This document shows positions 3,894-25,905 of a stretch of DNA of 25,905 bases, one piece after another. Under the pieces are notes generated by a model. The model was not told the origin of the DNA, ran no database searches, and saw nothing but the letters and a program-made list of their open reading frames with translations. Within the stretch, counting starts at the first letter, position 1, and each line of letters opens with the position of its first letter. The stretch lies in the IMG/VR virus record IMGVR_UViG_2711768032_000005; one strand, written 5' to 3'. Origin of the DNA: a virus (Duplodnaviria > Heunggongvirae > Uroviricota > Caudoviricetes). A program made the translations under genes and the position numbers.

Positions 3894-4165
3894 GTATTCG
3901 TATTGAAATTGGCGAACGTTATGTCGTTACCAGTGACAGCTTTCAGTTTATTCTCCACGAGAAAAAGAGGGCTGAAAGCGGTAAAAACGCCGGTCAGGAA
4001 TGGCTGGCGGTAGTTGGTTATTACCCGAAATTAAGCCAGCTCGTTTCCGGCATGATGCATCACGATATTCTGACCGGAAGCGCAAAGTCTTTTGCTGATT
4101 TAAACGCGCAGGTTGAGCAACTCAGCAAGCGTTGTTCAGAGGCTTTTGGCTCACATGGCCGTTAA
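3890..4165 (+). CDS. hypothetical early protein
   Basis: 91-aa ORF, GGAGAA RBS, ATGA overlap with the upstream ORF. Confidence 0.5.
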   Translation: MSIRIEIGERYVVTSDSFQFILHEKKRAESGKNAGQEWLAVVGYYPKLSQLVSGMMHHDILTGSAKSFADLNAQVEQLSKRCSEAFGSHGR

Positions 4166-6428
4166 AGCCTCCGGGCATTTTGTCCCTCCGTCAGCATTTG
4201 CCGCAGGCACCGGTAAGACGTTTACCGGTGCTTATGCATGGAACGCGCCACGCGAGGCCGTCGGGCGCGAAAGACCCCTTACACGTGACGAGATGCGTCA
4301 GGTGCAAGGTGTTTTATCCACGATTAACCGCCTGCCTTACTTTTTGCGCTCGCTGTTTACTTCACGCTATGACTACATCCGGCGCAATAAAAGCCCGGTG
4401 CACGGGTTTTATTTCCTCACATCCACTTTTCAGCGTCGTTTATGGCCGCGCATTGAGCGCGTGAATCAGCGCCATGAAATGAACACCGACGCGTCGTTGC
4501 TGTTTCTGGCAGAGCGCGACCAGTATGCGCGCCTGCCGGGGATGAATGACAAGGAGCTGAAAAAGTTTGCCGCCCGTATCTCATCACAGCTTTTCATGAT
4601 GTATGAGGAACTCTGCGATGCCTGGGTGGATGCGCATGGCGAGAAAGAATCGCTGTTTACGGATGAGGCGCAGGCTCACCTCTATGGTCATGTTGCTGGC
4701 GCTGCACGTGCTTTCAATATTTCCCCTCTCTACTGGAAAAAATACCGTAAAGGACAGATGACCACGAGGCAGGCATATTCTGCCATTGCCCGCCTGTTTA
4801 ACGATGAGTGGTGGACTCATCAGCTTAAAGGCCAGCGTATGCGCTGGCATGAGGCGTTACTGATTGCTGTCGGGGAGGTGAATAAAGACCGTTCTCCTTA
4901 TGCCAGTAAACATGCCATTCGTGATGTGCGTGCGCGCCGCCAGGCAAATCTGGAGTTTCTTAAATCGTGTGACCTTGAGAACAGGGAAACCGGCGAGCGC
5001 ATCGACCTTATCAGTAAGGTGATGGGCAGTATTTCTAATCCTGAAATTCGCCGGATGGAGCTGATGAACACCATTGCCGGTATTGAGCGTTACGCCGCCG
5101 CAGAGGGTGATGTGGGGATGTTTATCACGCTAACCGCGCCGTCAAAGTATCACCCGACACGTCAGGTCGGAAAAGGCGAAAGTAAAACCGTGCAGCTTAA
5201 TCACGGCTGGAACGATGAGGCATTTAATCCAAAGGATGCGCAGCGTTATCTCTGCCGTATCTGGAGCCTGATGCGCACGGCATTCAAGGATAATGATTTA
5301 CAGGTCTACGGTTTGCGTGTCGTCGAGCCACACCACGACGGAACGCCGCACTGGCATATGATGCTTTTTTGTAATCCACGCCAGCGTAACCAGATTATCG
5401 AAATCATGCGTCGCTACGCGCTCAAAGAGGATGGCGACGAAAGAGGAGCCGCGCGAAACCGTTTTCAGGCAAAACACCTTAACCGGGGCGGTGCTGCGGG
5501 ATATATCGCGAAATACATTTCAAAAAACATCGACGGCTATGCACTGGATGGTCAGCTCGATAACGATACCGGCAGACCGCTGAAAGACACTGCGGCGGCT
5601 GTTACCGCATGGGCGTCAACGTGGCGCATCCCGCAATTTAAAACGGTTGGACTGCCGACAATGGGGGCTTACCGTGAACTACGCAAATTGCCTCGCGGCG
5701 TCAGTATTGCTGATGAGTTTGACGAACGCGTCGAGGCTGCTCGCGCCGCCGCAGACAGTGGCGATTTTGCGCTGTATATCAGCACGCAGGGTGGGGCAAA
5801 TGTTCCGCGCGATTGTCAGACTGTCAGGGTTGCCCGTAGTCCGTCGGATGACGTTAACGAGTACGAGGAAGAAGTCGAGAGAGTGGTCGGCATTTACGCG
5901 CCGCATCTCGGCGCGCGTCATATTCATATCACCAGAACGACGGACTGGCGCATTGTGCCGAAAGTTCCGGTCGTTGAGCCTTTGACTTTAAAAAGCGGCA
6001 TCGCCGCGCCTCGGAGTCCTGTCAATAACTGTGGAAAGCTCACCGGTGGTGATACTTCGTTACCGGCTCCCACACCTTCTGAGCACGCCGCAGCCGTGCT
6101 AAATCTGGTTGATGACGGTGTTATCGAATGGAATGACCCGGAGGTCGTGAGGACGCTCAGGGGGGCATTAAAACACGGTCTGAGAAGACCAAACCGTCAG
6201 CAAAGAAACGGAAGCCCGTTAAAACCACATGAAATAGCACCGTCGGCCAGACTGACTCGGTCGGAACGATTGCAAATTACCCGTATCCGCGTTGACCTCG
6301 CTCAGAACGGTATCAGGCCGCAACGATGGGAGCTTGAGGCGCTGGCGCGTGGCGCGACCGTAAATTATGACGGGAAAAAATTCACGTATCCGATTGCTGA
6401 TGAGTGGCCGGAGTTTTCCGCAAACTAA
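4155..6428 (+). CDS. A: replication initiation protein A-like (rolling-circle nicking endonuclease)
   Basis: 757 aa from ATG 4155 (track ORF starts at TTG 4113; P2 A is about 761 aa as recalled). HUH-like HWHMMLF motif and paired tyrosines in GYIAKYISKNIDGY. Confidence 0.8.
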   Translation: MAVKASGHFVPPSAFAAGTGKTFTGAYAWNAPREAVGRERPLTRDEMRQVQGVLSTINRLPYFLRSLFTSRYDYIRRNKSPVHGFYFLTSTFQRRLWPRIERVNQRHEMNTDASLLFLAERDQYARLPGMNDKELKKFAARISSQLFMMYEELCDAWVDAHGEKESLFTDEAQAHLYGHVAGAARAFNISPLYWKKYRKGQMTTRQAYSAIARLFNDEWWTHQLKGQRMRWHEALLIAVGEVNKDRSPYASKHAIRDVRARRQANLEFLKSCDLENRETGERIDLISKVMGSISNPEIRRMELMNTIAGIERYAAAEGDVGMFITLTAPSKYHPTRQVGKGESKTVQLNHGWNDEAFNPKDAQRYLCRIWSLMRTAFKDNDLQVYGLRVVEPHHDGTPHWHMMLFCNPRQRNQIIEIMRRYALKEDGDERGAARNRFQAKHLNRGGAAGYIAKYISKNIDGYALDGQLDNDTGRPLKDTAAAVTAWASTWRIPQFKTVGLPTMGAYRELRKLPRGVSIADEFDERVEAARAAADSGDFALYISTQGGANVPRDCQTVRVARSPSDDVNEYEEEVERVVGIYAPHLGARHIHITRTTDWRIVPKVPVVEPLTLKSGIAAPRSPVNNCGKLTGGDTSLPAPTPSEHAAAVLNLVDDGVIEWNDPEVVRTLRGALKHGLRRPNRQQRNGSPLKPHEIAPSARLTRSERLQITRIRVDLAQNGIRPQRWELEALARGATVNYDGKKFTYPIADEWPEFSAN

Positions 6429-6631: not shown

Positions 6632-9226
6632 TTAGGCGGCGATGTTGATGTTATTTTTATATTTTAAGAGGGCGCTTTCTGGAACTGCTGGCCAGGCTGA
6701 GTATCTATAATAGTTCATATAATCTTTCTCTATCAGTCTCTTTAACTGTTTGTTAGCCTGAACTTCATCGTCAAGTAAAAAGAATGCACACATGGATGTA
6801 GCCCCTTTTGAATTATTATGTGCTAAAACTGAATTTATCTCATTCTTTTTAATGTCTTGTCTTTGTTTTTTCTTGGCAACTTCCCTATTGATTATTAAAA
6901 CATCTTTCTCTCTGTAATCTTTGATTTTTTCAAGATTTTCATTAGTTATTTTAATTGTTTCTTTATAGTTTCCTGCAAGAAGGTTAGTATAAGATTTTCC
7001 TAAGATATAATCACTAAACCCGTAACCTTTCTCATAAGCTTCATCAAGAAGAATTATCGCTTTTTCATAATCGCCGTTTAAAGATGCAATATCAGATTTT
7101 AATTTCAAAATGGTTATTTCTGATTTATTTCTTGGCAGGCTGTCAATAAACTCCTCTGCCAATTTGATGTTGTTTTTATCAATTAGCAATATGTCTATAA
7201 TACTGTCTGTATGATTATTCTTCCACGGACAATTCATGGCTTCTTTGGCTAATTCAATGCCAGCTTTGATGTCTCTGTTGCAGCCTATCTCATATCGAGC
7301 TTTAAATATAATGAAAGGAGCAATTCTTGCAATGTCGCCCTCTTCTTCATATTTATCAATAAAGTCTTTCATCAAGCCGGGAGTGTTTTCGTCAAAGTCT
7401 GTTTCAAATAAAGATAGATGCAGTTGTGTTAAATATTTTAATATATTTCTCTTTTTATTTTTTGATGATGTTTTGTAAACGTTGGATAATTTATCTATGC
7501 ACAATAATGCCTCTTCTTTTTTTTGCAATGCGCAGGTGAAATCAGTATATAACGACAAATATGTATCGTGAGTAGGGTTAACATCTTTTATTTTATCAAG
7601 TAGTTCTTGTATTGATTTGTTACAATCTTTCTTATCATAGCTTGATTGATGTTTTGTCTTTATCGCGTCATATTTTATTCTCCATGCAATATTATCCAGA
7701 TTACTGCTTTGGAGTAAACTTTTATCAATTAAATCATGTATTTCATCAAAGGTTATTAATTCCTCATCATGATTTTCTAGATGTAGAATAGCAATTCTGC
7801 TTAAATGATTCTTAAGATTTATGCTATATGGGAATTTTTCTAGCAATCCCTTTAGGTAATGTATTTTTTCATTTAGATCTGTGAATATGTTTGTCCTTGA
7901 TAGGGCGTAATTTATATTAAATTCATCAAGAGCTATGAGTTTATCACTAATTTCTAATGCTGACTTTGTGTCTTTTTGTTCTTCTTTTATTTCAATTAGC
8001 CTACGTAGATATTTAGATTTTATATTGTCACTATCAGCGTTATTGATTAAATCATTCAGTTTTGACTCTGCGTTTGAATAATTTTTATTTCTAATGAGGT
8101 TGTCAATGTATAACAAATTCTTAAAATCTTCTTCGGGAATTTTTTGTTCGTCTAAATCACTTTGGGATAGCTCGTTTATTAATGATGATATGTCATGTGT
8201 TAGAGTGTGTTTTTTTAATTTTGAGAGGTCAGATTTGATAATGTTATTTTTAGATAAGCTGTACTCATCTGTTATAAAGTTTTGAATCATCATCTCTCTT
8301 TTTGTGGATTTTTGATTCCCTCCAAAAGAGAGTGTGCAGCCTAATTCAAGGGCTAGTTCTGCCATTAATTCATCAAAGCCTTCTATTTCTACCCAATAAA
8401 CTTTCTCTTGACCTAGAAGCCTAATTAGTTCTGGTGGGATGGCGTCATTTTGTCTTACGCACCAATATACCCCATTCCGTAGGTAATCGTCCTGTTTTAA
8501 TAAATGTTTTAAAACATCCATGATAGAGCTGTCATTGCCAGCATAACCAACAAAAATAACCCCGTATTCTTTAGTGAATTCAGTTAGTTTTTCACGAGTG
8601 TTACCTTCTAATGACTCGGTTTCTTTTAAAGAGCTTTTTATGCTATCAAATAGATAATCACCATGTAATTTTATTATTTTTGGTCTTGAAGAAGTAATTG
8701 AGACGCCTTTAATTGATGAGTCATGTGCGCATAATAATGGTCTGTCAGAAGAAAATTGATAAAATGCTTCATTTATTAAATCGTCAAAATTTGTTGTGAA
8801 GACAGTATCAAAAAACTTTGATTCAAATAGTTCAACGAGATAAGCATATCCAATTGAAGGTAATTTTTTGTCTACTTGAAGCTCAACAAATCTTCTGCGT
8901 TGAGATGGGAGATCAAATTTCTTTTCAAAAAGAGAGGAGTATTCATTGTTTGGGTCGTACCAGACTGGATGGTTTTTGGATAGCCATTTTTTAGCTTCTT
9001 CGGCATCGATATATTCTTTATTGGATAGTCTTGTGTATATCTCTTCTCTCCATGTTGCAACTAACTCTTGACCAGTTTTTATTCCTGATGTAACGGATGC
9101 ACCAGCACCAAGAAAGAGTGAATAGTTAGGTGATGTACCTGATTTGATTTTTATATAATCTGCTAAATCTTTAACTGTTCTTTTTTTGGCAACCAGTTGT
9201 TCCTTGGTAGTATCACGATCAGACAT
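6632..9226 (-). CDS. SIR2-like (sirtuin-type NADase) domain protein with long helical C-terminal region; candidate anti-phage defence effector
   Basis: 864 aa; ATG at 9226 with strong GGAGGG RBS. N-terminal 300 aa carry SIR2-type motifs FLGAGAS (37-44), TTNFD (Asn146, codon 8789-8791), KLHGD (His188, codon 8663-8665), GYAGND; Asn-His spacing of 42 is similar to ThsA and DSR2. AT-rich, unlike flanking phage genes. Confidence 0.8.
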   Translation of the reverse strand: MSDRDTTKEQLVAKKRTVKDLADYIKIKSGTSPNYSLFLGAGASVTSGIKTGQELVATWREEIYTRLSNKEYIDAEEAKKWLSKNHPVWYDPNNEYSSLFEKKFDLPSQRRRFVELQVDKKLPSIGYAYLVELFESKFFDTVFTTNFDDLINEAFYQFSSDRPLLCAHDSSIKGVSITSSRPKIIKLHGDYLFDSIKSSLKETESLEGNTREKLTEFTKEYGVIFVGYAGNDSSIMDVLKHLLKQDDYLRNGVYWCVRQNDAIPPELIRLLGQEKVYWVEIEGFDELMAELALELGCTLSFGGNQKSTKREMMIQNFITDEYSLSKNNIIKSDLSKLKKHTLTHDISSLINELSQSDLDEQKIPEEDFKNLLYIDNLIRNKNYSNAESKLNDLINNADSDNIKSKYLRRLIEIKEEQKDTKSALEISDKLIALDEFNINYALSRTNIFTDLNEKIHYLKGLLEKFPYSINLKNHLSRIAILHLENHDEELITFDEIHDLIDKSLLQSSNLDNIAWRIKYDAIKTKHQSSYDKKDCNKSIQELLDKIKDVNPTHDTYLSLYTDFTCALQKKEEALLCIDKLSNVYKTSSKNKKRNILKYLTQLHLSLFETDFDENTPGLMKDFIDKYEEEGDIARIAPFIIFKARYEIGCNRDIKAGIELAKEAMNCPWKNNHTDSIIDILLIDKNNIKLAEEFIDSLPRNKSEITILKLKSDIASLNGDYEKAIILLDEAYEKGYGFSDYILGKSYTNLLAGNYKETIKITNENLEKIKDYREKDVLIINREVAKKKQRQDIKKNEINSVLAHNNSKGATSMCAFFLLDDEVQANKQLKRLIEKDYMNYYRYSAWPAVPESALLKYKNNINIAA

Positions 9227-9717: not shown

Positions 9718-10752
9718 TCAGCCGTTGTCAGTGTCCAGTGAGTAGTTTTTAAAGCGGATGACCTCCTGACCGAGCCAGCCGTTTATCTCGCGGATCCTGT
9801 CCTGTAGCGGGATAAGCTCATTGCGGACAAAGACCTTTGCCACTTTCTCAATATCACCCAGCGACCCGACGTTCTCCGGCTTGCCGCCCATCAACTGAAA
9901 GGGGATGCGGTGCGCGTCCAGCAGGTCAGCGGCGCTGGCTTTTTTGATATTAAAAAAATCGTCCTTCGTTGCCACTTCACTGAGCGGGATAATTTTGATG
10001 CCGTCGGCTTTCCCCTGTGGGGCATAGAGAAACAGATTTTTAAAGTTGTTGCGGCCTTTCGACTTCACCATGTTTTCGCGGAGCATTTCGATATCGTTGC
10101 GATCCTGCACGGCATCAGTGACGTACATGATGTATCCGGCATGAGCGCCGTTTTCGTAATACTTGCGGCGGAACAGTGTGGCTGATTCATTCAGCCAGGC
10201 AGAATTAAGGGCGCTGAGATATTCCGGCAGGCCGTACAGCTCCTGATTGATATCCGGCTCCAGCAGGTGAAACACGGAGCCGGGCGTGAAGGCTGTCGGC
10301 TCGTTGAAGGACGGCACCCACCAGTAAACATCCTCCTCCACGCCACGGCGGGTATATTTTGCCGGTGAGGTTTCCAGTCTGATGACCTTACCGGTGGTGC
10401 TGTAACGCTTTTCCAGAAACGCATTACCGAACACCAGAAAATCCAGCACAAAGCGGCTGAAATCCTGTTGCGAAAGCCACGGATGCGGGATAAATGTCGA
10501 GGCCAGAATATTGCGTTTAACGTAAATCGGTGAGCTGTGATGCACGGCAGCACGCAGGCTTTTCGCCAGACCGGTAAAGCTGACCGGCGGCTCATACCAT
10601 CTGCCGTTACTGATGCACTCGACGTAATCCAGAATGTCACGGCGGTCGAGTACCGGCACCGGCTCACCAAAGGTGAAGGCCTCCATTTTCGGGGCGCTGG
10701 CGGTCATTTTTTTTGCCTCAGGTTGCGGTGTTTTCCCTTTTTTCTTGCTCAT
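9718..10752 (-). CDS. Q: portal protein Q-like
   Basis: 344 aa, same length as P2 Q as recalled; start overlaps the P stop (ATGA); opposite orientation to the O-N-M-L block as in P2. Confidence 0.9.
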   Translation of the reverse strand: MSKKKGKTPQPEAKKMTASAPKMEAFTFGEPVPVLDRRDILDYVECISNGRWYEPPVSFTGLAKSLRAAVHHSSPIYVKRNILASTFIPHPWLSQQDFSRFVLDFLVFGNAFLEKRYSTTGKVIRLETSPAKYTRRGVEEDVYWWVPSFNEPTAFTPGSVFHLLEPDINQELYGLPEYLSALNSAWLNESATLFRRKYYENGAHAGYIMYVTDAVQDRNDIEMLRENMVKSKGRNNFKNLFLYAPQGKADGIKIIPLSEVATKDDFFNIKKASAADLLDAHRIPFQLMGGKPENVGSLGDIEKVAKVFVRNELIPLQDRIREINGWLGQEVIRFKNYSLDTDNG

Positions 10753-12524
10753 CAGTAAAACTCCAGAATGGTGGATGTCAGCGGAGTGCTGATACCGGCG
10801 GTGAGTGGCTCATTTAACAGGGCGTGCATGGTTGCCCAGGCGAGGTCGGCGTGGCTGGCTTCCTCGCTGCGGCTGGCCTCATAGGTGGCGCTGCGTCCGC
10901 TGCTGGTCATGGTCTTGCGGATAGCCATAAACGAGCTGGTGATGTCGGTGGCGCTGACGTCATATTCCAGACAGCCACGGCGGATAACGTCTTTTGCCTT
11001 GAGCACCATTGCGGTTTTCATTTCCGGCGTGTAGCGGATATCGCGCGCGGCGGGATAGAACGAGCGCACGAGCTGGAACACGCCGACACCGAGGCCGGTG
11101 GCATCAATACCGATGTATTCGACGTTGTATTTTTCGGTGAGTTTGCGGATGGATTCCGCCTGAGTGGCAAAGTCCATGCCTTTCCACTGGTGACGCTCAA
11201 GTATTCTGAATTTGCCACCGGCCACCACCGGCGGTGCCAGCACCACGCATCCGGCGCTGTCGCCACGGTGTGACGGGTCGTAACCAATCCATACCGGGCG
11301 GGAGCCGAACGGATTCGCGGCAAACGGCGCATAGTCTTCCCATTCTTCCAGCGTGTCGACCATGCAGCGTTGCAGCTCCTCGAACGGGAACACCGACGCC
11401 TTGTCGTCAACAAATTCACACATGAACAGGTTTTTAAAATCGTCGGCGCTGTTTTCACGTTTGAGCTGCTCAATGTCGAACAGCGTGCAGCCACCTTTCA
11501 GGGCGTCCTCAATGGTGACAATCTGCCGCCACTGGCCGTCCGCACAGAGAAGCCCACCGGCAAGGGCGTTATGACTGACGTCGATTTCCACGCGTTCGGC
11601 GGCGCTGGCGCGTCCCCGGTTGAACAGTTCACCTGACCAGAACGGGTAGGCGTCGTGCGCCAGCGTGGACGGGGTGGAGAAATAGGTCGAACGCAGGTGA
11701 CTCTGTGAGGCCATACCTGATGCCACCTTACGCAGTACCTGAAAATTCGGGATCCAGAAAATCTCGTCGACGTACAGGTCGCCGTTATGGCTCTGTGCGG
11801 TGTTGGAGTTGGTGCCGAGAAAAATTAGTTTTGCGCCGTTATTGCCCAGGACAATCGGGTCACCGGTCAGGTCAACGTCAACCAGACGGGCAAAGGCGAT
11901 GATGTATTCGCGGAACACATACGCCTGCGTTTTACTGGCCGACAGAAAAATCTGGTTATGACCGGTTTTCAGGGCGCGCAGCAGCGCCTCGCGGGAAAAA
12001 TAAAACGTCGCGCCAATCTGGCGGGATTTCAGGATATCGCGGATGCGGTGCTCAAGCCCGGCGCGATACCAGTGCAACTGATATTCGAAAGACTGCTCAA
12101 AGAAAATCTGCTCCAGCTTTTCGATGGCCTCGTCACTGAAAAAATTCTTTTTCGGTTTGCGACGCCCGCCTTTGTTGCGGTTAGCGACGTTCGGATTAAG
12201 GTCTGCCTCGTTGCCGGTCTGACTGTAGCGGTTTACCCGTGCCAGTCGTTCAATCTGGCGTCCCAGCAGGTCAATTTCCTTGAAGTCACCGCCGGTTTTC
12301 TGCGGTTTGATGATGAGCTGGGTCAGTCGCGCTTCCAGACTCATTTCGACACGGCTGATGGGGGCAACGCTGTCCCAGCCGTCGCGCTGTTTCCAGCTCT
12401 GCACCGTCGGGCGTTTCATCTGCAACATGGCGGCAATCTGCGGCACGGAAAACCCCTGCCAGTACAGCAGCGCCGCCTGACGACGCGGGTCGTGTAAAAG
12501 AGTGGTGTCTGTGGTGATGGTCAT
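10752..12524 (-). CDS. P: terminase large (ATPase) subunit P-like
   Basis: 590 aa from ATG 12524 (GAGG RBS 6 nt upstream), same length as P2 P as recalled; the track ORF extends 10 codons further upstream. Confidence 0.85.
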   Translation of the reverse strand: MTITTDTTLLHDPRRQAALLYWQGFSVPQIAAMLQMKRPTVQSWKQRDGWDSVAPISRVEMSLEARLTQLIIKPQKTGGDFKEIDLLGRQIERLARVNRYSQTGNEADLNPNVANRNKGGRRKPKKNFFSDEAIEKLEQIFFEQSFEYQLHWYRAGLEHRIRDILKSRQIGATFYFSREALLRALKTGHNQIFLSASKTQAYVFREYIIAFARLVDVDLTGDPIVLGNNGAKLIFLGTNSNTAQSHNGDLYVDEIFWIPNFQVLRKVASGMASQSHLRSTYFSTPSTLAHDAYPFWSGELFNRGRASAAERVEIDVSHNALAGGLLCADGQWRQIVTIEDALKGGCTLFDIEQLKRENSADDFKNLFMCEFVDDKASVFPFEELQRCMVDTLEEWEDYAPFAANPFGSRPVWIGYDPSHRGDSAGCVVLAPPVVAGGKFRILERHQWKGMDFATQAESIRKLTEKYNVEYIGIDATGLGVGVFQLVRSFYPAARDIRYTPEMKTAMVLKAKDVIRRGCLEYDVSATDITSSFMAIRKTMTSSGRSATYEASRSEEASHADLAWATMHALLNEPLTAGISTPLTSTILEFY

Positions 12525-16246: not shown

Positions 16247-16528
16247 ATGACAGCAGAAGAAAAAAGCGTCCTGTCGCTTTTCATGATTGGGGTGCTGATT
16301 GTTGTCGGCAAGGTGCTTGCCGGTGGTGAACCCATCACCCCGCGTCTGTTTATCGGGCGCATGTTGCTCGGTGGTTTTGTCTCGATGGTTGCCGGTGTTG
16401 TTCTGGTGCAGTTTCCTGACCTGTCACTGCCAGCGGTGTGCGGCATCGGCTCCATGCTGGGTATCGCCGGTTATCAGGTGATTGAGATTGCCATTCAGCG
16501 CCGCTTTAAGGGCAGGGGGAAACAGTAA
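16247..16528 (+). CDS. Y: holin Y-like
   Basis: 93 aa; hydrophobic transmembrane segments (LSLFMIGVLIVVGKVLAGG, LLGGFVSMVAGVVLV); first gene of the lysis cassette. Confidence 0.8.
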   Translation: MTAEEKSVLSLFMIGVLIVVGKVLAGGEPITPRLFIGRMLLGGFVSMVAGVVLVQFPDLSLPAVCGIGSMLGIAGYQVIEIAIQRRFKGRGKQ

Positions 16529-17025
16529 TGCCGGTAATTAACACGCATCAGAATATCGCCGCCTTTCTCGACATGCTGGCCGTGTCCGAAGGGACGGCGA
16601 ATCATCCACTGACGAAAAACCGGGGCTATGACGTGATAGTCACCGGACTGGACGGAAAGCCGGAAATTTTCACCGACTACAGTGACCACCCGTTCGCGCA
16701 TGGCCGACCGGCGAAGGTGTTTAACCGTCGCGGTGAAAAATCCACGGCCTCCGGTCGTTATCAGCAGCTTTACCTGTTCTGGCCGCATTACCGCAAACAG
16801 CTTGCCCTGCCGGATTTCAGTCCGTTGTCACAGGACAGACTTGCCATTCAGTTGATCCGCGAACGCGGTGCACTGGATGACATCCGGGCGGGACGCATTG
16901 AGCGCGCCATTTCACGCTGTCGCAATATCTGGGCGTCCCTGCCGGGTGCCGGTTACGGTCAGCGTGAGCATTCACTGGAAAAACTGGTCACCGTCTGGCG
17001 TACCGCTGGCGGCGTACCGGCTTAA
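16528..17025 (+). CDS. K: endolysin K-like
   Basis: 165 aa, same length as P2 K as recalled; located between holin and lysA/B/C. Confidence 0.85.
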   Translation: MPVINTHQNIAAFLDMLAVSEGTANHPLTKNRGYDVIVTGLDGKPEIFTDYSDHPFAHGRPAKVFNRRGEKSTASGRYQQLYLFWPHYRKQLALPDFSPLSQDRLAIQLIRERGALDDIRAGRIERAISRCRNIWASLPGAGYGQREHSLEKLVTVWRTAGGVPA

Positions 17026-17039
17026 ACGGAGTAAACACC

Positions 17040-17465
17040 ATGAAGAAATTATCCCTTTCACTGATGCTGAACGTGTCGCTGGCGCTGATGCTGGCACTGT
17101 CCCTGATTTACCCGCAGAGCGTGGCCGTCAGTTTTGTCGCTGCATGGGCGATTCTGGCGACGGTTATCTGTGTGGTTGCCGGTGGTGTCGGCGTGTATGC
17201 CACGGAGTATGTGCTGGAACGCTACGGGCGGGAGCTGCCGCCGGAATCGCTGGCCGTGAAGATTGTCACGTTGCTGTTTTTGCAGCCGGTGCCGTGGCGC
17301 AGACGGGCGGCGGCTCTGGTGGTGATGGTGGCGACGTTTATCTCGCTGGTCGCTGCCGGGTGGATTTTTACCGCGCTGATTTATCTCGTGGTATCGGTGT
17401 TCTTCCGGCTGATACGTACGGCCTGCCGTCAGCGTTTTGAGGGGCGGGAACTATGTCAAAGCTGA
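17040..17465 (+). CDS. lysA: lysis accessory membrane protein LysA-like
   Basis: 141 aa, multiple hydrophobic helices; P2 lysis cassette synteny. Confidence 0.7.
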   Translation: MKKLSLSLMLNVSLALMLALSLIYPQSVAVSFVAAWAILATVICVVAGGVGVYATEYVLERYGRELPPESLAVKIVTLLFLQPVPWRRRAAALVVMVATFISLVAAGWIFTALIYLVVSVFFRLIRTACRQRFEGRELCQS

Positions 17466-17878
17466 TGATTGTGCTGGTCGTGTTGTTATCGCTGGCGGTG
17501 ACCGGTCTGTTTCTGGTGAAACACAAAAATGCCAGCCTGCGCGCCTCGCTGGACAGGGCGAATAACGTCGCCAGTGAACAGCAGACGACCATCACCATGC
17601 TGAAAAATCAGCTTCATGTTGCCATCACCAGGGCAGACAAAAACGAGCTGGCGCAGGTGGCACTGCGTCAGGAACTGGAGAACGCCGCGAAGCGTGAAGC
17701 ACAGCGCGAGAAAACCATCACGAGGTTACTTAATGAAAACGAAGATTTTCGCCGCTGGTATGGTGCTGACCTGCCTGATGCTGTGCGCCGGTTGCACCAG
17801 CGCCCCGCCTGCACCGACGCCAGTGATTGTCGCCAACGCCTGCCCGAAAGTGAGCCTTTGCCCGATGCCGGGCAGTGA
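17453..17878 (+). CDS. lysB: Rz-like inner-membrane spanin LysB-like
   Basis: 141 aa with N-terminal transmembrane segment (LMIVLVVLLSLAVTGLFLV); synteny. Confidence 0.7.
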   Translation: MSKLMIVLVVLLSLAVTGLFLVKHKNASLRASLDRANNVASEQQTTITMLKNQLHVAITRADKNELAQVALRQELENAAKREAQREKTITRLLNENEDFRRWYGADLPDAVRRLHQRPACTDASDCRQRLPESEPLPDAGQ

Positions 17879-18023
17879 CCCGGAGACGAACGGCGATTTA
17901 AGTGCCGATATCCGGCAGCTTGAGAACGCGCTGGCACGTTGTGCCAGCCAGGTAAAAATGATTAAACACTGTCAGGACGAAAACGATGCTCAAACCCGAC
18001 AGCCTGCGCAGGGCGCTGACTGA
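17733..18023 (+). CDS. lysC: Rz1-like outer-membrane lipoprotein spanin LysC-like, nested in +1 frame across the lysB 3' end
   Basis: ATG 17733 with GAGG 7 nt upstream; 96 aa; signal peptide with lipobox LCAGC; Pro-rich mature region. Confidence 0.6.
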   Translation: MKTKIFAAGMVLTCLMLCAGCTSAPPAPTPVIVANACPKVSLCPMPGSDPETNGDLSADIRQLENALARCASQVKMIKHCQDENDAQTRQPAQGAD

Positions 18024-18453
18024 TGCCGTCACGGTGCTGAAAACCAGTCCAGAGATGCTGCGGATATTCGTGGATAACGGGAGTATTGCCTCCACGCTGG
18101 CGACGTCGCTGTCGTTCGAAAAGCGTTACACGCTCAATGTGATTGTGACCGACTTTACCGGTGATTTTGACCTGCTCATCGTGCCGGTGCTGGCGTGGCT
18201 GCGGGAAAATCAGCCCGACATCATGACCACCGACGAAGGTCAGAAAAAAGGTTTCACGTTTTATGCAGACATCAACAATGACAGCAGCTTTGATATCAGC
18301 ATCAGCCTGATGCTGACCGAGCGAACGCTGGTCAGTGAGGTTGACGGTGCGCTGCATGTGAAGAATATCCCGGAACCTCCGCCGCCGGAGCCAGTCAATC
18401 GCCCGATGGAGCTTTATATCAATGGTGAACTGGTGAGCAAGTGGGATGAATGA
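17986..18453 (+). CDS. R: tail completion protein R-like
   Basis: 155 aa, same length as P2 R as recalled; synteny. Confidence 0.75.
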   Translation: MLKPDSLRRALTDAVTVLKTSPEMLRIFVDNGSIASTLATSLSFEKRYTLNVIVTDFTGDFDLLIVPVLAWLRENQPDIMTTDEGQKKGFTFYADINNDSSFDISISLMLTERTLVSEVDGALHVKNIPEPPPPEPVNRPMELYINGELVSKWDE

Positions 18454-18898
18454 GTTTAAGCGTTTTGAAGACCGGCTGACCGGACTGATTGAATCGCTGT
18501 CACCGTCTGGGCGTCGGCGACTGAGTGCAGAACTGGCGAAGCGTCTGCGGCAGAGTCAGCAGCGTCGGGTGATGGCACAGAAAGCCCCGGACGGCACACC
18601 CTACGCACCACGCCAGCAGCAGAGCGCCAGAAAAAAGACCGGTCGCGTTAAGCGAAAAATGTTTGCGAAACTTATCACCAGTCGTTTTTTGCATATCCGC
18701 GCCAGCCCTGAACAGGCATCAATGGAGTTTTACGGCGGGAAGTCACCGAAAATCGCCAGTGTGCATCAGTTCGGTCTGTCGGAAGAAACCCGGAAAGACG
18801 GTAAGAAAATTGATTATCCGGCGCGTCCTCTGCTCGGCTTTACCGGTGAGGATGTGCAGATGATTGAAGAGATTATCCTGGCTCACCTCGACCGTTAG
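18446..18898 (+). CDS. S: tail completion protein S-like
   Basis: 150 aa, same length as P2 S as recalled; synteny. Confidence 0.75.
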   Translation: MNEFKRFEDRLTGLIESLSPSGRRRLSAELAKRLRQSQQRRVMAQKAPDGTPYAPRQQQSARKKTGRVKRKMFAKLITSRFLHIRASPEQASMEFYGGKSPKIASVHQFGLSEETRKDGKKIDYPARPLLGFTGEDVQMIEEIILAHLDR

Positions 18899-18899
18899 T

Positions 18900-18917
18900 T
18901 GTGCCATTCCCGACACA
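18900..18917. promoter_or_regulatory. TGT-N12-ACA dyad, candidate Ogr-type late-activator site upstream of V
   Basis: TGTGCCATTCCCGACACA read in the 66-bp S-V intergenic region. P2 late promoters are described as having a TGT-N12-ACA element; spacing to the V start is not verified. Confidence 0.35.
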
Positions 18918-18964
18918 TCATCGTTACATTGCCGCCGGTATGACCCGGAGGCATCCTTCCCGTT

Positions 18965-21390: not shown

Positions 21391-23601
21391 ATGAGCACAA
21401 AATTCAGAACCGTTATCACCACTGCCGGTGCAGCAAAGCTGGCAGCGGCAACCGCACCGGGAGGGCGGAAGGTCAACATTACCACGATGGCCGTCGGGGA
21501 TGGCGGTGGTAAATTGCCTGTCCCGGATGCCGGACAGACCGGGCTTATCCATGAAGTCTGGCGACATGCGCTGAACAAAATCAGCCAGGACAAACGAAAC
21601 AGTAATTATATTATCGCAGAGCTGGTTATTCCGCCGGAGGTGGGCGGTTTCTGGATGCGTGAGCTTGGCCTGTACGATGATGCGGGAACGTTAATTGCTG
21701 TGGCGAACATGGCTGAAAGTTATAAGCCTGCCCTTGCCGAAGGCTCAGGGCGTTCGCAGACCTGCCGCATGGTCATCATCGTCAGCAGTGTGGCCTCAGT
21801 GGCGCTGACCATTGACACCACAACGGTGATGGCAACGCAGGATTACGTTGATGACAAAATTGCAGAGCACGAACAGTCACGACGTCACCCGGACGCCTCG
21901 CTGACCGCAAAAGGTTTTACTCAGCTAAGCAGCGCGACCAACAGCACGTCTGAAACACTGGCCGCAACGCCGAAAGCGGTAAAGGCCGCATATGACCTTG
22001 CTAACGGGAAATATACTGCACAGGATGCCACTACAGCGCGAAAAGGCCTTGTTCAGCTCAGTAGTGCGACTAACAGCACGTCTGAAACGCTCGCCGCAAC
22101 GCCGAAAGCGGTAAAGGCCGCATATGACCTTGCTAACGGGAAATACACTGCACAGGACGCCACCACAGCGCGAAAAGGTCTTGTCCAGCTCAGTAGCGCC
22201 ACCAACAGCGATTCTGAAACGCTTGCGGCAACGCCAAAGGCGGTAAAGGCCGCGTATGACCTTGCTAACGGGAAATACACTGCACAGGATGCCACCACGG
22301 CGCGAAAAGGGCTTGTCCAGCTCAGTAGCGCCACCAACAGTGATTCTGAAACGCTGGCCGCAACACCAAAAGCGGTGAGGTCTGCCTATGACAATGCTGA
22401 AAAACGTCTTCAGAAAGATCAGAACGGTGCGGATATTCCGGGAAAGGATACCTTCACGAAAAATATCGGTGCCTGTCGTGCTTATAGCGGCGCTTTGAGC
22501 ACTGAAGCCGGAAACTGGACAACCGCTCAGTTTATTGACTGGCTAGAGTCTCAGGGAGCCTTTAATCATCCTTACTGGATGTGCAAGTGTTCCTGGTCAT
22601 ATGGTAATAACAAAATTATTACCGATACTGACTGTGGGACTATTCATCTTGCAGGTTGCGTGATTGAGGTTATGGGCGTTAAAGCAGCAATGACCATTCG
22701 TGTGACCACTCCGAGTACATCAAGCGGTGGTGGTACCACCAGTGCGCAATTCACGTATATCAATCACGGAGCTGATTATGCGCCGGGCTGGCGACGCGAC
22801 TACAATACGAAAAATAAGCAACCGGCTTTTGCATTAGGGAAAACAGGAAATACGGTTGCAAATAATAAAGCGGTAGGATGGAACTGGGACAGTGGTGCTT
22901 ATTGTGCACAGGATGGCGGAGCATCAAAAATGGTGTTGCATTTTTACACGGGTGAGGGAAGTTGTCCGGCAATGCAGTTTCTTGTGGATTATAAAAACAG
23001 GGGGATTTTTTACAGGTCGGCACGTGATGGGTATGGATTTGAGGCTGACTGGTCAGAGTTTTATACCACATCACGAAAGCCAACACCTGCGGATATTCTT
23101 GCTCTGGCATTATCAGGCGGAAGCATGTCAGGCAGCATAAAATTTATCAATGATGCCTTCCTGATTTGGGAAAGAAACACTGACTGGGCGAAAATTGGAT
23201 TTAAAAATGATTCAGATGCTGATTCTGACTCATACATGTGGTTTGAAACTGGTGATAATGGCAATGAATATTTTAAATGGCGCATCAGGTCTGGCAGCAC
23301 AACAAAAGATCTGATGACGCTTAAGTCTGATGCACTACGGGTTACCGGGCAGGTGATACCATCAAATTTCAGCAATTTTGACTCCCGCTATGTCCGGGAT
23401 ATCCGACTTGGTGGTGCCGCCACATACAAACCTGCGAACAATGGCATGACATGGACACATCAGGCACCGTCCGGGTGTGTATATACCGGCATTATTGTTC
23501 AGGATACCGGCTCAAACTCTGCCGATAACATTGGTGGCGTATATTACAGACCGGTTCAGAAATACATTAACGGGACATGGTACAACGTGGCGCAGGTATA
23601 A
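21391..23601 (+). CDS. H: tail fibre protein H-like, with internal tandem repeats and a divergent middle segment
   Basis: 736 aa; N-terminus MSTKFRTVITTAGAAKLAAA and C-terminal tip QKYINGTWYNVAQV resemble P2 H as recalled (P2 H is shorter, about 669 aa). Confidence 0.85.
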   Translation: MSTKFRTVITTAGAAKLAAATAPGGRKVNITTMAVGDGGGKLPVPDAGQTGLIHEVWRHALNKISQDKRNSNYIIAELVIPPEVGGFWMRELGLYDDAGTLIAVANMAESYKPALAEGSGRSQTCRMVIIVSSVASVALTIDTTTVMATQDYVDDKIAEHEQSRRHPDASLTAKGFTQLSSATNSTSETLAATPKAVKAAYDLANGKYTAQDATTARKGLVQLSSATNSTSETLAATPKAVKAAYDLANGKYTAQDATTARKGLVQLSSATNSDSETLAATPKAVKAAYDLANGKYTAQDATTARKGLVQLSSATNSDSETLAATPKAVRSAYDNAEKRLQKDQNGADIPGKDTFTKNIGACRAYSGALSTEAGNWTTAQFIDWLESQGAFNHPYWMCKCSWSYGNNKIITDTDCGTIHLAGCVIEVMGVKAAMTIRVTTPSTSSGGGTTSAQFTYINHGADYAPGWRRDYNTKNKQPAFALGKTGNTVANNKAVGWNWDSGAYCAQDGGASKMVLHFYTGEGSCPAMQFLVDYKNRGIFYRSARDGYGFEADWSEFYTTSRKPTPADILALALSGGSMSGSIKFINDAFLIWERNTDWAKIGFKNDSDADSDSYMWFETGDNGNEYFKWRIRSGSTTKDLMTLKSDALRVTGQVIPSNFSNFDSRYVRDIRLGGAATYKPANNGMTWTHQAPSGCVYTGIIVQDTGSNSADNIGGVYYRPVQKYINGTWYNVAQV
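21910..22396 (+). repeat. four tandem 132-bp (44-aa) in-frame repeats inside the tail fibre gene
   Basis: Units start at 21910, 22042, 22174, 22306. Protein unit KGLVQLSSATNS(T/D)SETLAATPKAVKAAYDLANGKYTAQDATTAR; by eye copies 2 and 3 differ at about 13 of 132 nt, mostly synonymous; the fourth copy diverges in its last third. Confidence 0.85.
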
Positions 23602-23699: not shown

Positions 23700-24352
23700 T
23701 CACTGATCTCCTTCGGTCAACGGAGATTGTATTTTCCGCATTGATTCTCCTTTAAGTTCGATCTTGATACTGCCATGAACCAGTCGATCTAGGATGGCAT
23801 CCGCATGTGTGGAGTCTCCGATCATTTTGTACCAGTTTTCCACCGGCAACTGGCTCACTACGATGATTGAGCCTCGTTGGTACATCAGATCCACTATTTC
23901 CAGCAGGTCGCTACATGCCCCTGATAGCACTGTTCCATCAGCGCTTTAAGGCGATAATAGTAGACCTTGTATCCCTGTCGGCAGGCATTATGACCAAGTG
24001 CACATGCCAGGAACGTTTTACCGCTGCCGGTGGCCCCGGTCAGTAAAATATTTTGTTTCAGGGTTAACCAGTTTCCCTGACTGAGTGAACGGATGAGGGC
24101 CCTGTCCAGCCCTCTATTGTTACGATAATCCAGCTTTGATAACTCAGCATTAAGTCTGAACCGTGCATGTTTGATCAGACGCTCTGCCTTCCTGTTTTCA
24201 CGGCAGGTTAGTTCTTCTGCTGTCAGTAATGACAGGCGTTCTTCGAAGCCCAGCTCCTGGTATGTGCCCGGTTGAGCAAGTTGCTTTTTAAGCGCATCAC
24301 GGAAGCCGGTGAGTTTAAGTGCGGTCAGTTGTTCGTAAAGATGATTCATCAT
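23700..24352 (-). pseudogene. istB: istB (IS21 helper ATPase), disrupted
   Basis: Two fragments in different frames (23894..24352 with Walker A; 23700..23930 with C-terminal RGSIIVVSQLP...ILDRLVHGS...KGESMR). Frames overlap around 23930-23945 and the segment expected to hold Walker B (hhhhDE) appears missing. Confidence 0.65.
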
Positions 24353-24363
24353 TGGATCCCGTA

Positions 24364-25905
24364 TCAGTGGTAATACTCACTGCCGCGTACGTTTTCGTGT
24401 TCCATCGTGGATAACAGATCTGGTTTTGGATCCTGAACAGGTTGTTTATCCAGACCTTTTTCCAGGATCGATTTAATACCTGACAGACGCCATACCTTTG
24501 TTTTCAGAGCTCTTGCACATGCTGCATTAAGTCTGGCTTTACTGTATTTTTTATGAAGGTTCAGGAGTCCAAGGCAGAAGCGATAGCTTTGTTCCGGATG
24601 TGGACGAGAGTTCAGTATATGAAGCACATAACTATGAGTTTCACTGCCTATGTGCCCCGCCCATTCCAGAAGACGCTCTGGCGTCCAGGTGGCATGCTGT
24701 CGATGAGCTTCAGGCATGTGCTCGTTGCGGGTACTGTAGCCATAAGTACGCTTGCGCGGGTGCACAGCAACCTCCTGCCCCTGATTGAAGAGTCTTACCA
24801 GTTCTCCGGAGATCCATGCTTCCAGTTGCTGGCCTAACAGCGAACATGGAACCGAGTAGTAATGTTTGTCGATTTCCACGTGGTAATCGGCATGAACTCT
24901 GACTTTCTTCACCAGGGTGTAACTGTAACTGGCTTCAGGAAGAGGCTTCAGTGCGGGTTTATCAAGCTGGATGAAGAGTTCTGCACGTGAATAACCCAAC
25001 TTCTGCATTATTTTGTTATTCAGTCTTTCCAGCAACTCCCGAATGCGCTGATTAAGCGATGCAAGGCTGTAGAAGATCTCATGCCTGATTCGGGCCATGA
25101 TCCAGCGTTCAACAACCTGAACGCCAACTTCAGCTTTGGCTTTATCTTTCGGTTTACGTGGCCGCGCAGGCAAAACTGCGACATTATAATGCTCAAGCAT
25201 CTGCTGGTAGGTAGGGTTAACGTCAGGATCATACTTACATGCCCTGGATGTGGCGCTTTTCAGATTGTCCGGAACAACAAGTTCAGGAACGCCACCCAAC
25301 CACTGGAAGCAGCGAACATGACTCATCACCCAGTCTTCAAGCTGCTGAGACCAGGTGGCCTCTGCCCATGTGTAACTTGATGCCCCGAGAACAGCTACGA
25401 TGACCTGAGCAGTTCTTATTTCTCCGGTCTCAGGGTCGGTAACGCCAACGGTAGGTCCACAGTAATCAACGAAAAGTTTTTCGCCAGCTTTATGTACCTG
25501 ACGCATTGATGGTGAAGTGGTTTTGAGCCATTCACGGTACATCCGGCAGTAATGGTTATAGCTGTAAAAACCGCCTGGATTACGCTCACAGTATTCTTCC
25601 CAGAGTAGCTGCAGCGTCACGCATTTATTACGCAGTTCCCGGTGTACTGTAGCCCAGTCAGGCAGAGAGTGCTTCTTCATCTTAACCTGGGTCTGAAGGA
25701 ACGCATGTTTTAGTTTTGTATCATCCCATCCTGTAGGTAAGGGCCACTGCTTTATGCCAAGTTGAGCCGCCCGATTAGCATATCTGGATACAACGGAAGG
25801 GGAGATTGCAAGACTACGACCAATTTGTCGATGGCTGAGTCCAACACCGTATTTAAGCCTAAGAATTTCTTTAAGTTTTCTCATAGAAATTGGAACTGTT
25901 GGCAT
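24364..25905 (-). CDS. istA: IS21-family transposase IstA
   Basis: 513-aa ORF; N-terminal HTH (LSHRQIGRSLAISPSVVSRY); directly upstream of istB. ATG lies at the last three bases of the window, so the true start could be further upstream. Confidence 0.8.
   Translation of the reverse strand: MPTVPISMRKLKEILRLKYGVGLSHRQIGRSLAISPSVVSRYANRAAQLGIKQWPLPTGWDDTKLKHAFLQTQVKMKKHSLPDWATVHRELRNKCVTLQLLWEEYCERNPGGFYSYNHYCRMYREWLKTTSPSMRQVHKAGEKLFVDYCGPTVGVTDPETGEIRTAQVIVAVLGASSYTWAEATWSQQLEDWVMSHVRCFQWLGGVPELVVPDNLKSATSRACKYDPDVNPTYQQMLEHYNVAVLPARPRKPKDKAKAEVGVQVVERWIMARIRHEIFYSLASLNQRIRELLERLNNKIMQKLGYSRAELFIQLDKPALKPLPEASYSYTLVKKVRVHADYHVEIDKHYYSVPCSLLGQQLEAWISGELVRLFNQGQEVAVHPRKRTYGYSTRNEHMPEAHRQHATWTPERLLEWAGHIGSETHSYVLHILNSRPHPEQSYRFCLGLLNLHKKYSKARLNAACARALKTKVWRLSGIKSILEKGLDKQPVQDPKPDLLSTMEHENVRGSEYYH

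Follow-up and report, generated by a model that had tools for sequence, protein, structure and literature searches.

A P2-type lysC gene overlapping lysB and R at the end of the lysis cassette of an Escherichia coli prophage

The stretch of DNA analyzed here, referred to below as the window, is 25,905 nucleotides long. Its 5' end lies within yegR, an E. coli gene, and a P2-type integrase comes next; this identifies the element as a chromosomal prophage. The lysC gene is the last one of a holin–endolysin–lysA–lysB cassette, and the tail-completion genes R and S are located downstream. The genes of this region are as follows:

16247..16528, plus strand: gene Y, holin, the first gene of the lysis cassette (Pfam Phage_holin_3_2, 143.6 bits; PHROG holin; P2 gpY at the same position)
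16528..17025, plus strand: gene K, endolysin (PHROG endolysin families; P2 gpK at the same position)
17040..17465, plus strand: lysA, membrane protein affecting lysis timing in P2 (P2 LysA at the same position; NCBIfam DNZ54_00345, 120.3 bits)
17453..17878, plus strand: lysB, i-spanin (Rz equivalent), 141 aa (TIGR03495; 96% identity to P2 LysB)
17733..18023, plus strand: lysC, very probably the o-spanin gene (Rz1 equivalent), encoding a predicted lipoprotein precursor of 96 aa (family models, conserved frame, purifying selection)
17986..18453, plus strand: gene R, tail completion, 155 aa, not a lysis gene (Pfam P2_Phage_GpR, 153 bits; P2 gpR at the same position)

Several complete E. coli chromosomes carry the 701-bp lysBC stretch unchanged (100% identity), and less similar copies occur in 1609 of the 5426 complete E. 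coli genomes (approximately 30%). In the identical E. coli DNA, PGAP names both spanin genes, LysB and LysC (the latter as "Rz1-like lysis system protein LysC"), and it names the K product a glycoside hydrolase of family 24. The N-terminal transmembrane helix of LysB is visible as a hydropathy peak at residues 4–22. An Rfam scan of the window gave no match, and a tRNA scan of it found none. The closest phage record, ON470611, contains an apparent 279-bp duplication of lysBC; the duplication includes 10 N and was rejected as a scaffolding artefact.

The lysC gene starts with an ATG at 17733 and ends with a TGA stop codon at 18021–18023, which gives 96 codons. The signals of the gene, its overlaps with the neighboring genes and the elements within it are located as follows:

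17722..17726, plus strand: Shine–Dalgarno sequence GAGGT of lysC, inside lysB (read from the sequence)
17733..17878, plus strand: dual-frame stretch of 146 nt, lysB in frame 0 and lysC in frame +1 (coordinates; both frames constrained)
17733..17792, plus strand: predicted LysC signal peptide, codons 1–20, MKTKIFAAGMVLTCLMLCAG (Lys-rich n-region, uncharged hydrophobic core)
17793..17795, plus strand: codon of Cys21, the predicted lipid-modified first residue of mature LysC (invariant in 12/12 lineages)
17879..17985, plus strand: segment of 107 nt coding for LysC only (coordinates; pN/pS of 0.23 in the lysC frame)
17930..17948, plus strand: perfect 8-bp hairpin GCTGGCAC-GTT-GTGCCAGC in the LysC-only segment (fold; 'putative transcription attenuator' in the P2 record)
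17974..17977, plus strand: Shine–Dalgarno sequence AGGA of R, inside lysC (read from the sequence; 8 nt 5' of the R start codon)
17986..18023, plus strand: dual-frame stretch of 38 nt, the 3' end of lysC and the 5' end of R (coordinates)

The spacing between GAGG(T) and the ATG of lysC is 6–7 nt, and similar sequences (GAGG, AGGA or AAGG) precede the lysC start in most of the 12 compared loci, namely the window, P2 and ten divergent relatives. The first-pass annotation of this DNA had described a 96-aa ORF with its own ribosome binding site, beginning within lysB in the +1 frame, running 145 nt past the lysB stop and overlapping the start of R. All of this agrees with the measured coordinates: lysC is in the +1 frame relative to lysB (17453–17878), its 3' part continues for 145 nt after the lysB stop, and it shares 38 nt with R. 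One further statement, that three genes share one stretch of DNA, does not stand. As the end of lysB (17878) and the start of R (17986) leave 107 nt between them, the overlaps are pairwise only, and no base belongs to all three genes.

Spanin genes are arranged in three ways, called embedded (as in lambda), overlapped (as in P2) and separated (as in T4). An embedded o-spanin gene is contained completely in the i-spanin gene, whereas an overlapped one continues past the i-spanin stop (Kongari 2018, PMC6139136). In the window, lysC starts 146 nt before the lysB stop and ends 145 nt after it, which is the overlapped arrangement, and the same was found in 12/12 loci. The gene is not embedded, since 145 nt of it follow the lysB stop, and the last 38 nt of these are in R. 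The arrangement had been called "embedded" in the first-pass annotation, even though its own figure of 145 nt indicated the overlapped class, the prototype of which is P2. The accompanying remark that the arrangement is a known one was correct, as the class of P2 LysB/LysC is described in the spanin literature, where this pair, which has been tested in experiments, serves as the prototype of two-component spanins of the overlapped type (Kongari 2018, PMC6139136). The SpaninDB class for P2 is 'ovl', and an NCBI note reads "not fully embedded". A passage of Lynch 2010 (PMC3091744), citing Markov 2004, likewise places the start of P2 lysC in lysB in the +1 frame and its stop, out of frame, in R.

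The predicted LysC protein matches the NCBIfam equivalog model NF038368 P2_Rz1 ("Rz1-like lysis system protein LysC") with 130.8 bits against a cutoff of 27 over the whole model (1–85/85), and the Pfam family PF23793 LysC with 62.5 bits, also against a cutoff of 27 and over the whole model (1–69/69). LysB matches the NCBIfam equivalog TIGR03495 phage_LysB with 172.8 bits (cutoff 92.75). The PHROG families matched by LysB and LysC are labelled generically 'Rz-like spanin'. LysC is identical to P2 LysC at 92 of 96 positions (96%), and LysB to P2 LysB at 135 of 141 (96%). Over the lysis region, DNA identity is 97.2% to P2 (AF063097) and reaches 99% with other Peduovirus records; the alignment with P2 contains no indels, and the frameshift that the first-pass annotation had named as a possible refutation is absent relative to P2. 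On these model scores, LysC belongs to the LysC/P2_Rz1 o-spanin family. The family models and the identity of 96% thus agree with the first identification of the ORF as an Rz1-type lipoprotein spanin equivalent to P2 lysC, and the comparison with P2 lysC that had been suggested as a check showed the same position and the same lengths as well. A sequence search of the PDB with LysC returned nothing meaningful (the best E-value was 0.11, for an unrelated protease inhibitor), and the family has no solved structure.

The N-terminus of LysC reads MKTKIFAAGMVLTCLMLCAG|CTSAPPAPTPVIV: the n-region MKTK is followed by a hydrophobic core without charge and then by Cys21. Thr and Ser occupy positions +2 and +3 after this cysteine. 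According to the established +2 rule, the absence of Asp at +2 predicts sorting to the outer membrane. Eight Pro residues are found among the first 30 residues of mature LysC (9/76 overall), in agreement with the Pro-rich body mentioned in the first-pass annotation. The lipobox LCAGC proposed there was correctly placed; however, it is non-canonical, with Cys at −3, and the PROSITE rule fails on it. The lipobox consensus is [LVI][ASTVI][GAS]C, and other o-spanins deviate from it too. Neither strict PROSITE-type (PS51257) nor G+LPP-type lipobox patterns matched LysC, which is due to the Cys at −3 (C-A-G|C). SpaninDB notes 'No hit by Prosite' for P2 LysC and mentions that LipoP would cleave it at either of two sites, behind residue 17 or behind residue 20; the Shine–Dalgarno sequence, the signal of 20 aa and the mature N-terminus that SpaninDB gives for P2 are all the same as here. 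Since P2 LysC behaves in the same way and Cys21 is invariant, the PROSITE failure does not oppose the assignment as a lipoprotein. Of the 12 lineages, those of the P2/SW9/EtG group are the only ones with Cys18. Relatives have a canonical LSGC, LAGC or LCAC box at the equivalent position. The alignment, with Cys21 invariant and Cys18 restricted to one group, therefore resolves the ambiguity of the lipid-modified cysteine. It is unlikely that the C-A-G|C box with its second Cys at −3 gives two alternatively processed lipoprotein forms of LysC.

In the mature part of LysC, Cys37, Cys43 and Cys70 are invariant in 12/12 lineages, and Cys80 is present in 11/12. LysB has two periplasmic cysteines, Cys120 and Cys126. 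The SpaninDB counts for P2 are the same, four for LysC and two for LysB. These residues are consistent with the reported need for disulfide-linked spanin subunits.

The length of the ORF was rejected as proof of lysC because long alternative-frame ORFs are common in the window. The six-frame count is 49 ORFs of at least 96 aa, and at least nine alternative-frame ORFs of at least 140 aa overlap real genes; these numbers count for the rival reading of lysC as a chance open frame, of the kind that is frequent in GC-rich coding DNA, with a coincidental lipobox-like motif. The lipoprotein signal is more specific. Of the 789 candidate starts in the window, 3 were positive for a relaxed signal-plus-lipobox rule, which required K/R close to the initiation codon, a hydrophobic stretch free of charges, a tetrapeptide resembling a lipobox whose Cys falls at positions 15–30, and no Asp at +2; the mean was 0.18 per dinucleotide shuffle. 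The other two positives were yegR of the host and, probably by chance, an ORF of 52 aa in antisense orientation to the portal gene; that one positive besides lysC is an alternative-frame start, 10634 (+), speaks for coincidence. However, the conservation of the frame argues strongly against chance. A tblastn search detected the lysC frame in 277 phage records, with identities between 100% and approximately 35%; among the hosts are Escherichia, Yersinia, Salmonella, Klebsiella, Erwinia, Burkholderia, Pseudomonas, Halomonas and Aeromonas. Over 89–104 codons in the 12 lineages, whose identity also falls to about 35%, there are 0 stops in the lysC frame versus 4–8 and 2–5 in the other two; the frame is +1 relative to lysB in 12/12 lineages, and its 3' end lies within R in 12/12, with an overlap of 4–62 nt. 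Compared with Salmonella phage SW9 or Erwinia phage EtG, the LysC-only segment gave a pN/pS of 0.22–0.23 in the lysC frame versus 1.3–1.9 in the other two. In the lysB/lysC overlap, pN/pS was 0.42 and 0.52 in the two real frames and approximately 4 in the unused third frame. In addition, the curated family models far exceed their cutoffs, and P2 LysB/LysC have been tested experimentally as a spanin pair. Conservation and selection effectively refute the chance reading, which retains next to no probability; lysC is a real gene under purifying selection. The gene model leaves slightly more room for doubt. In the identical E. coli DNA, PGAP places the start at the equivalent of 17760 (Met10) and annotates an 87-aa LysC, and the LipoP cleavage of P2 LysC reported after residue 17 as well as 20 would make Cys18 the lipid-modified residue. 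Met10, however, occurs only in this allele (P2 has Thr, and other relatives have Ile or Leu), and the shorter protein would lose the basic K/R n-region, which is present in 11/12 relatives and missing in phiCTX. The GAGG sequence is positioned for 17733, and an in-frame stop lies 1–2 codons 5' of the aligned start in 7/12 loci and within 5 codons in 8/12. Taken together, the allele-specific Met10, the loss of the n-region, the placement of the Shine–Dalgarno sequence and the upstream stops make 17733 the better start. As for the lipid residue, Cys21 is invariant, Cys18 is confined to the P2/SW9/EtG group, and Leu at −1 of Cys18 would make a poor signal peptidase II site. A start at Met10 or lipidation at Cys18 is thus very unlikely, and 17733–18023 is the best-supported gene model. 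A longer open frame from 17616 (135 aa) was rejected, as it is not conserved.

Two other explanations concern the role of the locus. The run of lysC into R might be explained by a functional RNA hairpin at 17930–17948 that modulates the transcription or translation of R and S. This hairpin is annotated in the P2 record, and its perfect 8-bp stem is the same in the window and in P2 despite an altered loop; moreover, the most stable 40-nt window of this part of lysC is within the top 8% of the locus in 10/12 loci. Against such a role, a terminator scan did not detect the hairpin, there is no T-run 3' of it, the z-score of its region against shuffled sequences is −0.56, and more distant lineages carry different stems at this place. 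When synonymous codons were randomized with the protein fixed, 0/12 loci were more stable than the randomizations (z from −1.45 to +1.21, all p ≥ 0.076). The suggestive percentile signal thus disappeared under the synonymous-codon control, and the hairpin was rejected as a conserved RNA element; it is probably a by-product of coding for a conserved Ala/Trp/Cys-rich peptide motif. We consider a functional hairpin unlikely, and quite unlikely the more specific idea that ribosomes translating lysC would melt the hairpin and cross the Shine–Dalgarno sequence and the start of R, with the conserved lysC/R overlap (4–62 nt in 12/12 lineages) thereby coupling or tuning the expression of the tail-completion genes to spanin synthesis. 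The second explanation follows the older annotation of P2, in which LysC would be a regulator of lysis timing and not a structural subunit disrupting the outer membrane. The P2 GenBank record gives 'non-essential; regulation of lysis', and many phage records copy 'lysis regulatory protein'. Markov et al. reportedly found in 2004 that lysC alleles change how P2 infection proceeds on an rpoC mutant host, which may be counted for the same reading. However, in shaken laboratory cultures a spanin defect shows up as a non-essential effect on timing, and the old label can therefore be reconciled with a spanin. Furthermore, a type II inner-membrane protein and an outer-membrane lipoprotein at the end of the cassette is the architecture of all two-component spanins, and curated annotation now uses the names Rz-like and Rz1-like lysis system protein. 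A purely regulatory LysC therefore appears highly improbable. We note that, in the P2 GenBank record, both LysB and LysC still carry labels of a non-essential function in lysis timing or regulation.

Almost certainly, 17733–18023 is the lysC gene of an E. coli P2-type (Peduovirus) prophage and encodes the o-spanin, the subunit for the outer membrane, of a two-component spanin in which LysB is the i-spanin of the inner membrane. The mechanism suggested for this o-spanin is based on the LysC family and on work with lambda Rz/Rz1, while LysC itself has no detectable similarity to Rz1. The LysC precursor would cross the inner membrane by Sec via the signal peptide of 20 residues; Cys21 would then be modified with diacylglycerol, become N-terminal by signal peptidase II cleavage and be N-acylated, and Thr-Ser at +2/+3 would allow Lol to insert LysC into the outer membrane, on the side of its inner leaflet. 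The Pro-rich N-terminal part of the 76-residue mature LysC may form an extended tether, and the C-terminal part, with Cys37, Cys43, Cys70 and Cys80, is expected to bind the periplasmic C-terminal end of LysB, which would be anchored in the inner membrane through its N-terminal helix. The LysB–LysC complex would span the periplasm, threading the peptidoglycan meshwork. After the removal of the wall by the holin Y and the endolysin K, the freed complexes could join, fuse or disrupt the two membranes and thus release the phage. Export, lipidation, binding to LysB and membrane disruption are all inferred steps for LysC; a membrane-fusion model for two-component spanins is set out in Kongari 2018 (PMC6139136). 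The out-of-frame overlap of lysB and lysC can be understood as genome compaction that may also keep the interacting subunits genetically linked, and the separate Shine–Dalgarno sequence of lysC would permit independent initiation of translation within lysB.

The lysC locus is already known and routinely annotated. P2 lysC has been known for about two decades and is covered by curated family models, so the locus matters little as a discovery. It is useful as an annotation check, as overlapped o-spanin genes are often missed, truncated or mis-started: in ten divergent phage records, lysC is truncated in 4/10, omitted in 2/10 and called LolB in 1/10. The PGAP start at an allele-specific internal Met in identical DNA is an example of a mis-start. 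The remaining value of the analysis lies in the confirmed gene model, above all in the start at 17733.

The closest known system is P2 itself (AF063097, lysC at 8202–8492), in which the gene order Y-K-lysA-lysB-lysC-R-S, the lengths of LysB, LysC and R (141, 96 and 155 aa), the overlaps of 146 nt and 38 nt, the Shine–Dalgarno sequence and the hairpin stem are identical to those described here. The P2 LysC differs by four amino acid changes (R2K, T10M, P34A and Q51E) and LysB by six. In contrast to P2, the element in the window is a chromosomal prophage beside yegR, lacks P2 orf30 and carries other accessory genes. The same +1 overlapped architecture, with the 3' end of lysC in R, is found in phiCTX (orf12/orf12.5), the Burkholderia phages KS14 and KL3 (gp26/gp25), Fels-2 and SEN8. 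The LysC proteins of these Peduoviridae phages are 35–45% identical to the one described here and share the invariant lipid-modified Cys and the pattern C-x5-C ... NG[DE]L ... C. In these phages, LysC mostly has a canonical L-[SA]-G-C or L-C-A-C lipobox, many of the genes start with GTG, and between 4 and 62 nt are shared with R.

The likeness to lambda would be one of function: LysC probably acts like Rz1 but sits in a different sequence family. No similarity of LysC to lambda Rz1 was found, and a Pfam scan (E up to 0.01) gave only PF23793 LysC. Lambda Rz1 lies wholly inside Rz, whereas lysC passes the lysB stop by 145 nt and enters the next gene. Mature Rz1 is 40 aa long with 25% Pro, compared with 76 aa and 12% Pro in mature LysC. 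The mature N-terminus of Rz1 is Cys-Thr-Ser, as in LysC; Rz1 has one periplasmic Cys, unlike LysC, which has four. The spanins of T4 and T1 are not sequence-related to LysB/LysC and are organized differently, T4 having non-overlapping genes (PseT.3/PseT.2, the separated class) and T1 a single polypeptide (gp11, unimolecular). The final step of lysis is nevertheless the same in these systems, namely the disruption of the outer membrane by a lipoprotein-anchored structure that spans the periplasm.

lysC, the gene for the o-spanin precursor, is often mis-annotated in databases, as the compared PGAP-annotated DNA and phage records demonstrate (coordinates are those of each locus):

18361-18624, E. 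coli DNA annotated by PGAP (L013): lysC start placed at an allele-specific internal Met, giving 87 aa
about 1018-1191, four phage records (L003, L004, L006, L007): lysC shortened to 44-57 aa, with loss of the signal peptide
two phage records (L005, L012): lysC omitted
784-1173, Halomonas phage 4908 (L010): lysC over-extended and named LolB
624-1058, the same Halomonas phage: lysB left unannotated

In ON470611.1, the closest phage record, the 3' end of lysB and the 5' part of lysC are present twice, as an apparent duplication of 279 bp (1972-2312 vs 2251-2591). The 10 N at the junction and the slight differences between the copies mark it as a scaffolding artefact rather than a genuine separated spanin arrangement. 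The label of lysA is also affected. This gene (window 17040-17465, + strand) encodes a membrane protein with four helices, which in P2 influences the timing of lysis; the PHROG family phrog_162 and several RefSeq phage records call it 'endolysin', which looks like a propagated misnomer.

The following features of the window lie near its two ends and around the interval between genes A and Q:

1-318, + strand: yegR, an E. coli host gene (105 aa), beginning exactly at the window start
583-1596, - strand: P2-type tyrosine integrase, the next feature after yegR
4113-6428: replication gene A
6632-9226, - strand: SIR2_2-domain protein, 864 aa, between A and Q
9718-10752: portal gene Q
21391-23601, + strand: tail-fibre gene H, 736 aa, with its stop at 23601
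23700-25905, - strand: IS21-family element, directly after H
24364-25905, - strand: istA of this element
23894-24352 and 23700-23930, - strand: istB of this element, apparently split in two by a frameshift

Since yegR stands at the window start and is followed by the P2-type integrase, the window is a P2-type prophage inserted in the host chromosome next to yegR. The yegR product has a lipoprotein-like signal of the classical type (...IVSG|C). Another match to the relaxed lipoprotein-signal rule is a 52-aa ORF at 10634-10792 (+ strand), which lies antisense to portal gene Q; this is taken to be due to chance. Near the other end of the window, the H protein contains four tandem near-identical Phage_fiber_2 repeats of ~45 aa each (...AQDATTARKGLVQLSSATNS[TD]SETLAATPKAVKAAYDLANGKYT...). 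As no tail-fibre assembly gene G is visible between H and the window end, the prophage may be defective.

For the 864-aa SIR2_2-domain protein, PADLOC gives matches to SIR2 modules from pAgo-associated defence systems (1e-58). In an E. coli prophage whose lysBC is 100% identical, the equivalent position is occupied by reverse-transcriptase and FRG-domain genes. The A-Q interval therefore appears to be a hotspot for anti-phage defence genes with variable content. The gap between S and V appears to be a second site of variable insertion: in the window it comprises only 66 nt (18899-18964) and lacks the accessory gene orf30, which P2 carries on the opposite strand, and in E. coli strain 7/2 this spot is occupied by a different gene, encoding a 347-aa hypothetical protein.
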